This document shows positions 4,671 to 64,000 of a DNA stretch of 64,000 nucleotides, in pieces. A program made the position numbers and the translations under genes. The stretch is from Eledone cirrhosa (lineage: Eukaryota). The stretch lies in assembly GCA_964016885.1 (NCBI GenBank), contig OZ024746.1, forward strand, positions 50,778,001-50,842,000. The letters run 5' to 3'. Position 1 is the first letter of the stretch, and the number at the start of each line of letters is the position of its first letter. A model generated the notes under the pieces. It searched no databases. It was given only the letters and a program-made list of their open reading frames with translations, and was not told the origin of the DNA.

Positions 4671-5232
4671 ATCATAAAATATGTCTTTAGAATCACCAGA
4701 TATATTATATACCATTTCCTCTCCCAATTAGCATAATTAACCATATAAAAAATCAATTAGACAAAGCTATAAGAATAAAGGCTTCTATGAAGAAATCTCC
4801 GACAAATAACCGAAAGCAGCTCCTTCGCGGCGGCAACGATAGATTATTTATCTAACATTTCGACAGCATGTAAAAATCGACCAGATATACAGTCAACCAA
4901 ACACAATTAGGTGTAAAAATTGAACTTAGAAGAATTGTGTACATACCAAATTACCTCTACCATGGTTTCATCCGTATTTTAAGACATCCGACAACGGAAT
5001 GTCTAGAGTTTCGGAATCATCAGGAGCGAACTCAAAATTAGACAATTAATTTTCCAAAGTGATCGCGCCAAAAATACATTAATAAATGGCTAAGAATCGT
5101 GACGTGACAGGTCAAATTAGAAATGATGTGATTAGTTGCTTACAGCGGGTAGGCTTAATGCTAAAAAGCGCAGCCTAATACCGCCAAATTGTATTTCAAC
5201 CTAACGGGAGATTATTACATATAAAGGTTTAC
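4671..5232 (-). mobile_element. Non-coding PLE-type terminal repeat with hammerhead motif; its 92-bp end recurs at 5343-5434
   Basis: Hammerhead motif at 4955-5026; 4671-4762 nearly identical to 5343-5434; TA flanks. Confidence 0.55.
4955..5026 (-). ncRNA. Minimal type I hammerhead ribozyme motif
   Basis: CUC-CUGAUGA-UUCCG..[AGACAUUCCG/CGGAUGUCU]..CGGAU-GAAA-CCAUGG-UA-GAG; palindromic stem III; stem I only 3 bp. Confidence 0.7.
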
Positions 5233-5600
5233 ATACATATATATATATATATATATATATAAAGACATAGATATATGTGTTTTGCAACAGGTCACGTTGT
5301 GGCTCAATGAAAAATTAATAAATTAAACAATCAGAGTTATATATCATAAAATATGTCTTTAGAATCACTAGACATAATATATACCATTTCCTCTCCCAAT
5401 TAGCATAATTAACCATATAAAAAATCAATTAGACTTTATATATATATATATATGCATCTATATGTGTGTATGTATATAAAAATGTATGTATCTATATGTA
5501 TGTATATATATATATATATATGTATGTATCTATGTGTATATATATATATGTATGTATCTATGGGTGTATATATATATATATTTATATATATATATATATA

Positions 5601-60104: not shown

Positions 60105-63100
60105 ATTTCGTTTCTGAATTTGTTTAGCAAGATTCTTTATCTGAAATCGTGTGTTGAAACCGATATTGTTATACTTTGGGAGGGTCATGTTGCCAATAAG
60201 AAACACACGCACCAGTTGCTTTCACTTCAATTTAATTTATTAAATATTTATAAATTTACAAATTTATAAATTTCTGGTTGGTTGGTTGGTTCCACAACCA
60301 GATAGTTGTTTATATATATATAGTCATAGTTCTTTCGTCACACACTCTGTGACCTCTTCAGTGACTGGGGATTTCGTTCTTCGTTTCTGTGTCTTTCCTT
60401 TCTTCTATCCTACGCCATTTTGTTTGTGTGTGGGTTGCGTGCTCAGTTTGTGCATGCGCCACATCCGGGTGTCTGTGTGTGTTTGTGTTCATTTTTCTAT
60501 TTTTCTATTTATATTTTTCTATTTGTTTGTTTATTTATTTATTGTTGGTTGTTTGTTCTATGTGTGTGTGTGTTTTCATTTTGTCTTGTGTGTGTTTTCA
60601 TTTTGTGTGTGTTTTCAATTGTAAGTTGTTTGTTCTATGTGTGTGTGTGTTTTCATTTTGTCCTTAATTGTAAGTTGTGATGTTGCTGTTCCACTCATAT
60701 TTTCTATTTAATTTTGGTTTTAATTCTTTTATGCTTACTGCCTCTGTAATTTGCCTAAACATTGCGTCTTTCTTGTGTGTGGATTCTATTTTTATTTCTA
60801 TGCTCTCTAATTTACCCCTGTGTTCTATCTTAGCATGTTGGTAGAGCACAGATGATTCTTTACTATCTTGGAGGTCTCGCCAGTGTTCATTTATTCGTTC
60901 CCCTATACTACGAGCTGTCTCACCTATGTACACTACATTTTTGTTTCTACATTGTCCTTCAGTACATCTTATGCTATATACTACATTTCTAGTTTTACAG
61001 TTAATATGGGGGCTTATTTTACAGGTTATACATTTCTTATCTATACATGAGGGTCTTTGGAACGGGTATGTCTTGCTAATAAGTGTTTTTACGGAGGTAC
61101 CAGGTCTTTCTACTATCTTAATATTGAGATTATGTTTCTTTAGGGCCCTTCTAAATTTGTAGGCTAGTTCGCCTCTAGGGGTTGTATTGATGAACATTAC
61201 ACTCTGGTATTTATTGCTATCGTACCATGAGTTTATTCTATTGGCCTTGTTCTTAGTTCTTTCTATTCTATTCCAAAATTTGCTCCTATACAAGGGGCAG
61301 GTCCCATTTATGTCATTATTTACCATTTTTTCCCATTTGGTTCTGGCTCCTTTATACACTCGGATTCTATCTCTCTGATTGTAGCCAGAGAACTGCATAC
61401 GGTGGATGAAGTGTTGTATGTGTCTCTCTAGTTCTTCGGGGTTGCACATGCGGGACACATTTCTCATCACCCGTACCAAATCCGCAATCAGTATGTTGAT
61501 TTTGGTATGGTCCGAAACGGCTGAGTTTCGGTGGATCAGATGTTTGGAAGTCATGGGTTTGGCATAATGGGAATGGAGGATTTGTTTTTGGTTGTTAATA
61601 GTATCTAACCAGAGCTCTGTGTCTAGTACAGGTAATCGATGGTTGGGGTGTCTACTTGGGTAGTCTATAGTAACTCTAATGCTCTGGTGGATGGAGTTTG
61701 CTATTTGCTGGATGCTTTCCATTGTGTTTTTCTCTAGTTCCTGACTGTTCTTTAGTGGGGGTGTCTTAACTACGATGTTTATATCATCTACGTAGCGGGA
61801 GTACATTATCAGGGTTAAGCTGTCTTCTAATTGTTCATTAAGTTTTTGTTTAAGTCTACTGTCCCACCATACCATGAATAAGTTAGCTATGTCGCCTGCA
61901 ATGCTAACACCAATGGCTGCTCCTTCCTCTTGGGCATATGTTTTTCCACTAAATTTGAACATATGTTCCTTAAGGGTTAGTTTTATGCTGGCCCCTACCG
62001 CATGTGCAATCATTTTCTTCAGTTCATCGTGGTTTTCGGGTGTCCGTATGGCTCTGGTCCACCCGTTCCATCTATCTGTGTGGGTTTTCTTGGCCATTGA
62101 GGTAATGGTAGGTGGTCTGCCTCTTGCTGGTCTTGTAGGGCACAGGTTGCTAAGGTCATAAGTGTCTAGGTAACTATTACTATGGGTAAGCTTAAGTAGA
62201 AGTCCCAGCTCACTGGTATCAATCCCACGGAACTCAACCTTGCTCTCGCTGATCATTTCGACGCATTTCTCTACAGCAAAATCCACGTCAATAGATGGAT
62301 ACAGGGACACAACATCCATACTGCCTATTATGCAGTTTGTTAGGTCCCCAGATCGGTTACCCGCGCCGATTCTGCTGAGGAGGTCCTCCGTGCTGTCACA
62401 CACATCTGGGGACATCTCAATGATGGGGCGTATGATCAGGGAGAGGAAGTAGGACAGTCTGTAGTTACTAGCAATGTTAGCCCCACAGACTGGCCGTGTT
62501 GGTGGTCCCGCGACAGGGTCCCAGCCCGTTTTATGGTCTTTACGAAGCCCATACAACGCCGGCACGTCATTGTTCCAGGCCTGGAAGTTGTTGGCAGTCC
62601 TTTTGTTGGGCTGCATTATATTTGTCCACATCACCATATGGGCATTGAGGGTTTTTTCTCTATCCTCATGCTCCTGTGGTGTTACCTCTCTTGTGTTAGT
62701 GATGTGGGGTTGCATTGCCTGGATGTAGTTTGGCAGGCTGTCAACCGACATTCTGCCAGACTTGTCTGTTGGAAAGCATGCTATCTCTCCATTACGCGAG
62801 CGCTGCATGAGCTTACGCAAGCCATTTGCAGATTCTTCTCCCAGTTGCTGGGCCTCTATTCTATTATGCTTCTTGCTATACTGTTCTATAATATTTCTAA
62901 GTTCGGATTTAGCTATACTAAATTGTGCCTCTGTTTGTTCATCGACCTGCGACGGCAACTGCGTGCGTTTGTTAAATGGCAAAGTCGTGGCGTGGACTCG
63001 TCGTAGGTCGAATGATTTATCGGAGGGGTTATAAAACGGAGAGTTCCAGGCTGCTGCTTTATGTGTACTAGTGCTATTGTTATTGTTAGTTGTGTTGTTT

Positions 63101-64000
63101 CTATTTCCACCAACAGCAGCAGCCTCAGCTTCATGGTTGTTTCTATGTCTCTCATAATTACTCCTGTCTCTTTCCACTGGCTCAATGTTGTTATCTACCC
63201 TATTTTGTGTGTCTGTGTGTTCGTCTTGGTTATTCTCTTTGTCCTTAGTCTCCCATCTCCTTTTCCTTTTCCTTTTAATCCTATTACTTTCTCTTATTTC
63301 TCTGATTTCTGTGCTACTGTCATTACTTGTTTTCTGTGTCTGTGTGTTTGTTAAGATTGTGGTGAGAGGCATTGAATGCGTGTGTGTTGTTGTTGTTGAT
63401 GTGTGTTGTTGTTGATGTGTGTTGTTGTTGTCTCCGTGTGTGTGTGTGTTATCGTTGTTGTGTGTGTTGTTATTGTTGTTTGTGTTTGCGTGTCTGTTGT
63501 TGTTGTATCTGGGTATGTTGCTATTGTTGTTGTTGTTGATGTGTGTGTTGTTGTTATTATTGTCTCCGTGTGTGTTGTTATTGTTGTTTGTGTCTGCGTG
63601 TCTGTTGTATCTGGGTATGTTGCTATTGTTGTTGTTGTATCTGGGTATGTTGCTATTGTTGTTGTTATTGTTGTTTGTGTCTGTGTGTCTGTTGTTGTTG
63701 GGATGTGTGTTGTATATGTGTGTGCGTATATTGTTGCTTTTGTTTTTGTTTTTGATGCTCCAGCGTAGTTTCCTAAATGAACACAAACACACACAGACAC
63801 CCGGATGTGGCGCATGCACAAACTGAGCACGCAACCCACACACAAACAAAATGGCGTAGGATAGAAGAAAGGAAAGACACAGAAACGAAGAACGAAATCC
63901 CCAGTCACTGAAGAGGTCACAGAGTGTGTGACGAAAGAACTATGACTATATATATATAAACAACTATCTGGTTGTGGAACCAACCAACCAACCAGAAATT
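60105..64000 (-). mobile_element. Young Nematis-like PLE with inverted terminal arm from 63775 running off the window
   Basis: 63775-64000 is the reverse complement of 60269-60494; hammerheads at 60322-60366 (-) and 63903-63947 (+). Confidence 0.93.
60664..63774 (-). CDS. Uninterrupted PLE reverse transcriptase plus GIY-YIG endonuclease frame; native start uncertain (first ATG about 63372)
   Basis: DKSG, LYGLRKDHK, RPV, GSMDVVSLYPSI, QEEGAAIG, YSRYVDD, LPVLD, CxxC linker, VVY..YIGETAR, RQITEA, LN; the track start at 63849 lies in the inverted arm. Confidence 0.9.
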   Translation of the reverse strand, partial: RKLRWSIKNKNKSNNIRTHIYNTHPNNNRHTDTNNNNNNNSNIPRYNNNNSNIPRYNRHADTNNNNNTHGDNNNNNTHINNNNNSNIPRYNNNRHANTNNNNNTHNNDNTHTHGDNNNTHQQQHTSTTTTHTHSMPLTTILTNTQTQKTSNDSSTEIREIRESNRIKRKRKRRWETKDKENNQDEHTDTQNRVDNNIEPVERDRSNYERHRNNHEAEAAAVGGNRNNTTNNNNSTSTHKAAAWNSPFYNPSDKSFDLRRVHATTLPFNKRTQLPSQVDEQTEAQFSIAKSELRNIIEQYSKKHNRIEAQQLGEESANGLRKLMQRSRNGEIACFPTDKSGRMSVDSLPNYIQAMQPHITNTREVTPQEHEDREKTLNAHMVMWTNIMQPNKRTANNFQAWNNDVPALYGLRKDHKTGWDPVAGPPTRPVCGANIASNYRLSYFLSLIIRPIIEMSPDVCDSTEDLLSRIGAGNRSGDLTNCIIGSMDVVSLYPSIDVDFAVEKCVEMISESKVEFRGIDTSELGLLLKLTHSNSYLDTYDLSNLCPTRPARGRPPTITSMAKKTHTDRWNGWTRAIRTPENHDELKKMIAHAVGASIKLTLKEHMFKFSGKTYAQEEGAAIGVSIAGDIANLFMVWWDSRLKQKLNEQLEDSLTLIMYSRYVDDINIVVKTPPLKNSQELEKNTMESIQQIANSIHQSIRVTIDYPSRHPNHRLPVLDTELWLDTINNQKQILHSHYAKPMTSKHLIHRNSAVSDHTKINILIADLVRVMRNVSRMCNPEELERHIQHFIHRMQFSGYNQRDRIRVYKGARTKWEKMVNNDINGTCPLYRSKFWNRIERTKNKANRINSWYDSNKYQSVMFINTTPRGELAYKFRRALKKHNLNIKIVERPGTSVKTLISKTYPFQRPSCIDKKCITCKISPHINCKTRNVVYSIRCTEGQCRNKNVVYIGETARSIGERINEHWRDLQDSKESSVLYQHAKIEHRGKLESIEIKIESTHKKDAMFRQITEAVSIKELKPKLNRKYEWNSNITTYN

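Follow-up and report, generated by a model that had tools for sequence, protein, structure and literature searches.

Fold-back cassettes in (TA)n DNA of Eledone cirrhosa as predicted pLTR ends of Penelope-like elements with promoter-like fold points

Endonuclease-bearing (EN+) Penelope-like elements (PLEs) insert as head-to-head arms with a tail at one end, a palindrome at the junction and a hammerhead in the pseudo-long terminal repeat (pLTR), and they target microsatellites; an inverted copy, a one-sided tail and a preference for TA are typical of PLEs (PMC8557442, PMC3846280). In a pLTR of Adineta, a TATA box and a motif resembling an initiator (Inr) were noted (PMC8557442, PMC3846280). PLE promoters are located in the pLTR (PMC2377424), and minimal hammerheads with a palindromic stem III are known in PLEs (PMC4209133). 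The formation of tandem and inverted PLE structures has been named an open problem (PMC8557442), no obvious mechanism has been recognized for pLTR regeneration (PMC2377424), and the Penelope-like families of an octopus were listed without their structure (PMC13282606). We analyzed a stretch of 64,000 nucleotides from Eledone cirrhosa (assembly GCA_964016885.1, contig OZ024746.1, positions 50,778,001 to 50,842,000), referred to as the window. It contains five fold-back cassettes without an open reading frame (ORF), which represent five families (F1 to F5), and four coding PLEs, which are named 7038, 48297, 56731 and 60105 after their positions.

The window elements have the layout of EN+ PLEs as outlined above, although there were differences. 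The published tails are 30-40 nt long (PMC8557442, PMC3846280), while those found here are 55-161 nt; many insertions here consist of the pLTR end only; and the fold is concentrated at one site, which is not described in the partial text of those two papers. The motifs of the Hydra clade (PMC8557442), namely RW, DKT or DKTG, a CxCX5C linker and insertion into (TA)n, were present in F1, F2 (DKTG), F3 and the 48297 family, while F4 showed, of the three protein motifs, the linker only. In contrast, F5 and the 60105 family contained a CX4CxxC linker, which is Neptune/Nematis-like, and did not show the Hydra protein motifs. F1-F4 and 48297 are therefore putative Hydra-type PLEs, assigned by motifs rather than by a tree.

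Three further systems bear on the comparison. With the Poseidon protein of Anolis in vitro (Frangieh et al. 2024, PMC11167929), both target strands are cut and extended, two adjacent internal starts of reverse transcription define the tail, and hammerhead cleavage is not required. The tails found here appear to be bounded in the same way, although the starts lie inside the ORF in Poseidon and just before it here; the inverted arm and the points at which the cDNAs stop are not addressed in the partial text of that paper. Non-LTR retrozymes (PMC7229834; 10.64898/2026.07.22.740005) are likewise short, non-coding, PLE-related and equipped with a type I hammerhead, but they are tandem repeats processed to circles, whereas each cassette is one inverted insertion whose fixed ends lie apart from the cleavage site. 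In the twin priming of L1 (PMC4859970), two primers on one RNA also lead to an inversion; the second priming site is variable in L1, whereas both predicted starts are fixed here and both products can reach the 5' end.

The five cassettes lie where the first-pass annotation had placed them, flanked by (TA)n or (TA)n(GA)n, and each consists of a palindrome with a one-sided tail of 67-134 nt. They are also mutually unrelated, as no BLASTN match was found among the five. Exact tail-pattern searches across the assembly, with 0 matches for the reversed-pattern controls, gave 10,545 matches for F1, 4,947 for F2, 290 for F3 (a DNA similarity search with the F3 tail only gave none), 38,869 for F4 and 454 for the 48297 family; F5 had 873 candidates at first look. 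Elsewhere in the genome, all five families join a PLE ORF. F1 flanks an 808-aa frame on both sides as a pLTR-ORF-pLTR unit (locus L291), an 830-aa ORF follows the F2 tail (L292, L293), and the F3 cassette matches the two pLTRs of another such unit (L154) at 99.6% identity. Frames for reverse transcriptase (RT) and endonuclease precede F4 (L297, L351, L377), and F5 continues upstream into a decayed RT-GIY-YIG frame (L159). Partial tandem pLTRs were found for F3 (L154), F1 (L291, L303), F2 (L306) and in the window (48459-53649), and were not seen for F4 or F5.

Judged from sequence, all five cassettes are pLTR ends of ordinary ORF-bearing PLEs and not a separate class, which agrees with the earlier proposal that they are abortive insertions made by PLE RT. 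The features of EN+ PLEs were all found, that is, an RT plus GIY-YIG ORF, tandem pLTRs, a 5' inverted copy, a one-sided tail and a hammerhead. Pfam gave only weak matches (RVT_1, E=5e-4 for the 60105 ORF; no match for 48297), so the assignment to EN+ PLEs rests on motifs and mutual similarity. Because the inverted arm, the tail, the (TA)n targeting and the minimal hammerheads have already been published for PLEs, neither a "community" of mini-elements nor a "retrozyme" is needed to account for the cassettes. They represent new PLE families in a published layout, and published supplements may hold some of these families. Additionally, 270 segments that fold back and lie between TA runs were counted in the flanks of the fetched loci; at least 18 tail families occur there two or more times, and the fold-back design is thus genome-wide. 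In three families (tails of F1, F3, 48297 and others), the sequence RCTC...TGAG follows each of the two 3' ends at a distance of 7-10 nt, and it also heads most other tails; its fold is weak (-2 to -8 kcal/mol).

Fold points were sampled by tail in genome order, with 30 or 70 loci per family (for F5, the 30 best tail matches). Whole-cassette searches favour full palindromes, and their central matches were therefore excluded from the counts. We found that the 3' end of the inverted arm is fixed within each family and that the distance between the two fixed 3' ends of a family equals the tail. The 5' ends of the arms piled up at one position per family, which we call the wall. Within -3 to +12 nt of it lay 7/30 main and 10/11 inverted arm ends in F1, 9/30 and 8/9 in F2, 15/70 and 12/28 in F3, 16/30 and 10/18 in F4, and 14/30 and 7/11 in F5, while just 0-3 arm ends per family fell within the stretch of 37 nt upstream of the wall. 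A long class of 3-23 main arms per family extends far beyond the wall; the inverted arms of these insertions lie outside the sampled stretch and are thus undercounted. The pile was repeated in a larger flank harvest from which loci picked for length or palindromy were omitted (F4, 50/107 main and 46/64 inverted arms), and in this harvest no pile of arm ends was found at the hammerhead cleavage site in any of the five families.

Four of the five window cassettes fold no more than 30 nt from their own wall. An F2 fold at the wall (position 487/488) was also found in one sample and in one contig of a related organism. The two arms of one copy share subfamily alleles, and the divergence between them was lower than that between copies (0.9 vs 4.8% in F1; 4.3 vs 10.5% in F4). 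The centres of the junctions vary by copy, with small deletions and inserts. The first-pass annotation had stated that random fold points, with every family linked to an autonomous ORF, would reduce the cassettes to simple truncation products; the ORF linkage was indeed found, but the fold points are not random, as the ends pile at walls. Two other accounts of the piles were set aside: a splice acceptor at the wall, as AG is absent before it in F1, F2 and F3, and an extra F4 wall at -60, where the cluster of ends corresponds to a divergent subfamily.

The walls read TTTC/ATATG in F1, TTTC/ATTAT in F2, TTC/ACTAC in F3, TTTC/ATTTA or CTA/ATT in F4 and ACC/AGATG in F5, where the slash marks the wall. 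A TATA-like box is present at -25 to -30 in F3, F4 and F5, and CCAAT lies farther upstream in F4 and F5. In a sixth family, picked blind from the flanks, the short arms end at CCC/AGATT, with TATAAATA at -30 and CCAAT upstream, so that four of six families have a TATA-like box. The initiator consensus YYANW fits the walls of all six families, compared with 4-8% of positions in the same sequences. We also examined the base before arms that start at +1 without a templated C, and found G in 29/64 cases versus 93/429 at other positions. In a recount that covered the sixth family and F1, F2 and F3, but not F4 or F5, tandem duplications were dropped and each locus was counted once; G was then present in 19/43 arms versus 93/429 (22%; p = 8e-4). 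In F2, the G can occur on both arms. An untemplated G has been interpreted as copying of the cap in L1 and SVA (PMC4859970). A literature search that left most subscription papers, Repbase entries and supplements outside its scope did not turn up any report that assigns the fold centres of PLEs to transcription starts.

The ribozyme motifs were assessed with a type I hammerhead descriptor that allowed known core variants and with 60 dinucleotide shuffles of the window as a control. The descriptor gave 16 matches in 8 families versus 1.3 ± 1.1 in the shuffles, and 12 of the 16 had a self-complementary stem III versus 0.02 in the shuffles. Three extra motifs on the minus strand (at 4969, near 57030 and, degenerate, at 47237) and half-motifs in the cassettes at 23481 and 56309 were recognized by eye; with these extras, the earlier estimate of about ten hammerhead families is upheld. 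An Rfam scan showed no hammerhead among the best 150 of 561 matches, which were microRNA-like hairpins and TA noise instead. The hammerhead motifs are real and conserved, and their self-cleavage is predicted. In F4, most short copies hold only the 3' half of the ribozyme, and the whole motif is present in long copies, 29/32 of which have the core UUGANAA with N7 free. The hammerhead of long F4 copies (for example, L208:1330-1470) has a U3-A8 core, and its stem III of 5 bp is stable; the wall is contained in its long loop II, which also overlies the TATA-like box, and a transcript started at the wall would carry the substrate half only. An asymmetry between F1 arms at hammerhead position 1.2, seen among biased matches, was gone in an unbiased set (12/12 equal).

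With moderate confidence, we interpret these piles as the product of twin reverse transcription: the RT would start at two internal sites on the pLTR RNA and run off a predicted capped 5' end, and the two cDNAs would be joined head to head. We infer each of three parts of this reading, namely that transcription starts at the wall, that a single RNA is the source of the two arms and that these are joined by microhomology end-joining. The PLE enzyme would cut the (TA)n target, and both cut strands would prime reverse transcription of a single RNA, which would begin within the 5' pLTR copy at two fixed internal sites. The transcript would begin 65-225 nt upstream of the nearer start, and both cDNAs would run off the same capped RNA 5' end. 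Their joining would yield (TA)n, a short arm, a centre at +1, a long arm, the tail and (TA)n again, and earlier stops of the RT would yield shorter palindromes. Long or tandem copies pass the wall; for these, the RT would have to jump between templates, or the RNA would have to be circular or a longer read-through transcript. Both starts are downstream of the hammerhead, and an RNA cleaved in the 3' pLTR would lose the 3' start sites, so long copies would need a jump or a circle; these presumed steps fit the bypass of the wall.

In retroviruses, minus-strand strong-stop DNA is a cDNA that is primed near the 5' end and runs off the cap. The stubs could be its PLE counterpart, fixed in the genome, a proposal that we make tentatively: a dimeric RT would prime both strands, both cDNAs would reach the cap, and full-length copies would need a jump to the 3' pLTR or an RNA circularised by the hammerhead.

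Several observations weigh against twin reverse transcription up to a cap. BLAST located the arm ends with a precision of about ±5 nt, and the F1-F5 walls were picked after the data had been seen, so their p-values need an approximately 300-fold correction. The 48297 family (70 loci) had no wall: just 1/89 arm ends fell within 3 nt of a TATA-linked site predicted beforehand. (An 18-nt duplication in this family, considered as the scar of a jump, is an inherited variant present in several copies.) At ORF-bearing loci, 0/14 pLTR copies begin at the wall, with 13 running through it and one being shorter; a simple view in which full-length cDNAs stop there is therefore wrong. The window's own F2 copy folds away from its wall, about 145 nt downstream. 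F1 and F2 have no TATA box at -30. The G excess stems from the sixth family, F1 and F2 alone, with none in F3 (1/6), F4 or F5, and slippage in the ATATG centre could account for some of the Gs in F1. Finally, the sharing of alleles could also stem from later arm-to-arm conversion.

The absence of an upstream TATA box in F1 and F2 would suit stubs that propagate themselves in the manner of short interspersed nuclear elements (SINEs). Such a stub would keep +1 and an internal promoter, be transcribed and be copied in trans by the PLE protein, with the palindrome rebuilt in each round; the wall would still be the transcription start, but of the stub as the source. This is unlikely in our view, although the Penelope element of D. 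virilis has an internal promoter of Inr and downstream promoter element (DPE; PMC2377424), and F4 reached 38,869 tail matches, with only 13/107 of its sampled main arms extending past a point about 55 nt upstream of the wall. The TATA and CCAAT boxes seen in four families are missing from short copies, and the F3 stubs share 99.6% identity with a pLTR linked to an ORF, both of which speak against SINE-like stubs. A weak argument in the same direction is that short and long copies have four of the six commonest F4 haplotypes in common (24 short, 12 long only).

A single cDNA could also fold back and prime itself at a sequence hotspot, an idea close to one in PMC3846280, with one strand pausing at a structural or AT-rich palindromic site and copying itself, so that the wall would be a stop of the RT and not an RNA end. 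We regard this as distinctly unlikely. The F1 wall is a palindrome (CATATG), the arms share alleles, long copies cross the wall freely and the ends of the 48297 family are scattered, all as self-priming would have it. However, no stable hairpin was found upstream of any wall, and unfolded copies joined straight to TA likewise start at the wall. The arms end independently of each other, with deletions on either side and inserts between them, and self-priming leaves the fixed second 3' end and the G on both F2 arms unexplained.

Hammerhead cleavage and circularisation could give small RNAs that are reinserted, as in retrozymes, and the first-pass annotation had offered retrozyme-like non-autonomous elements as its second option. 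The hammerheads are real and conserved, and animal retrozymes have been reported as PLE derivatives (10.64898/2026.07.22.740005). Nevertheless, this origin is very improbable and that option is not supported: the ends do not pile at the cleavage site in the five families, the sampled loci held single inverted insertions and no tandem monomers, most short F4 copies have half a ribozyme, and every family has an ORF-bearing parent.

Fold-back chimeras of assembly or reads are hardly credible as the source of the palindromes: the region is blemished, with a garbled inverted segment (43064-43170) in a long interspersed nuclear element (LINE) and 25 gap openings between the two copies of that element, but each family has fixed arm ends in both orientations across many contigs, and three samples of Illumina restriction-site-associated DNA sequencing (RAD-seq) reads from another study contained opposite-strand F4 joints at the same places and in similar counts (76/79/101 and 31/34/51 reads). 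In each sample, about 1,500 reads also showed a short F4 arm end followed by (TA)n. At the level of the family, an artefact is thus largely refuted. RAD-seq read ends also piled up at the F4 wall, where an AATT site is present; this pile is probably due to the library enzyme and was not used as evidence. The features of the window are collected in Table 1.

Table 1. PLE-related features and the (TA)n field of the window.
Feature	Position	Strand	Description
Further hammerhead-bearing PLE end	4684..5226	-	GAAA at 4969, long stem II; found by eye, missed by the strict descriptor
7038 element	7038..10790	.	Two truncated 60105-family copies head to head; fold inside ORF (8753/8834); hammerhead 7231-7197 (-), right-arm copy with GCAA instead of GAAA; tail right, 10732-10790
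Interrupted (TA)n field	10956..40419		29 kb; target type of the PLEs and cassettes
F1 cassette	13745..14171	+	Head-to-head pLTR-end arms of putative Hydra-type PLE; fold ~13915, at family wall; whole hammerhead in each arm, 13985-14039 (+) and 13844-13791 (-); tail 87 nt
F2 cassette	23481..23749	-	Short fold-back near hammerhead stem III; ribozyme 3' part only; tail 134 nt
Hammerhead beside 200-N gap, then rearranged F1 pieces	40422..41333	+	Hammerhead 40480-40510; F1 pieces 40734-41333, with hammerhead 41248-41302
F3 cassette	46527..46955	+	Short insert at fold, 15-27 nt downstream of wall; one hammerhead per arm, 46768-46817 (+) and 46626-46577 (-); tail 88 nt
48297 element, putative Hydra-type PLE	48297..53649	+	Inverted arm 48297-48458; 5' pLTR 48459-49516; frameshifted ORF 49536-51934; 3' pLTR 52564-53649; C4-variant hammerheads at 48381, 49283, 53404; 161-nt tail
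Longer F2 relative	54010..54830	-	Whole hammerhead 54195-54072
PLE-like end	55580..56228	+	Hammerhead 56083-56128
F4 cassette	56309..56498	+	Fold ~8 nt downstream of wall, which sits within hammerhead loop II; only GAAA, stem III and cleavage triplet kept; tail 81 nt
56731 element	56732..58413	-	Truncated, internally deleted 60105-family relative; hammerhead near 57030; inverted arm 58323-58413; tail 56732-56786
F5 cassette	59181..59535	+	Fold ~59325, at wall; U3-A8 variant hammerhead per arm, 59364-59393 (+) and 59285-59256 (-); tail 67 nt
60105 element	60106..64000	-	1,036-aa RT + GIY-YIG frame (60667-63774); hammerhead 60361-60327; inverted arm begins at 63775; tail 60106-60166

The four coding PLEs of the first-pass annotation are all present, with RT and GIY-YIG-type frames, an inverted arm and a tail of 55-161 nt, but they do not represent four families: 7038 and 60105 belong to one family (95% identical), of which 56731 is a 73% relative. 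The far end of 60105 had been expected outside the window and was reached at ~64103, about 100 nt past the edge, where it enters (TA)n (locus L151). Upstream of the hammerhead, the 60105 and 56731 families contain the motifs GCGCATGCGC and AAAATGGCG, which we take to resemble an NRF1 site and a YY1 site, respectively. In the F5 cassette, a T-run/A-run (59418-59430) has a near-constant total length (13 in 57/78 copies), and the boundary between the runs differs between the arms of one copy, unlike other sites. Tail-only F4 fragments were found between TA runs at 59894-59970 and 4580-4630.

Interrupted (TA)n makes up half of the window (host assembly, 3.0 Gb), and masked non-TA DNA amounts to ~34 kb rather than the ~25 kb of non-satellite DNA given earlier. 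The 29-kb field contains only two cassettes and one LINE, and the mosaic at 44-64 kb hosts most elements. The TA field had been regarded as a niche shared by the elements; tabulation of the tail ends showed (TA)n directly beyond the tail in 27-29/30 and 66-68/70 sampled loci, and the preference is a matter of genome-wide targeting and not a property of the field. A 57-nt hairpin insert occurs in three copies in the field (16715-16771, 16909-16967 and 34066-34122), and the interruption patterns match at a spacing of 17,353 nt, which together suggest a duplication within the field.

The LINE mentioned above is an endonuclease-RT element and not a PLE (RVT_1, E=6e-31). Its two copies (17226-20137 and 41368-44463) are 97% identical and share the same TA junction; this pair is possibly a local duplication or an assembly duplicate around the 200-N gap at 40534-40733. 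A degenerate fold-back with 88% identical arms lies within one copy (42959-43170, including the garbled segment) and looks like a chimeric read or a consensus error. A truncated LINE RT fragment with a C-terminal zinc-finger-like region is present at 5602-6845.

Abundant palindromes of 100-450 bp could pass for miniature inverted-repeat transposable elements or microRNA hairpins; the Rfam microRNA models score the cassette palindromes below threshold. Cassettes within introns would be a ready source of perfect hairpin RNA, and a high potential for double-stranded RNA and hyper-editing have been reported in an octopus (PMC5625713). The fixed promoter-like wall and the cap-like G lead to base-precise predictions on how PLEs build their inverted ends. 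If the tentative strong-stop proposal is true, the fold centres, which number tens of thousands, would locate PLE promoters with single-base precision, and one mechanism would explain the inverted pLTR, the tail and the regeneration of the pLTR.

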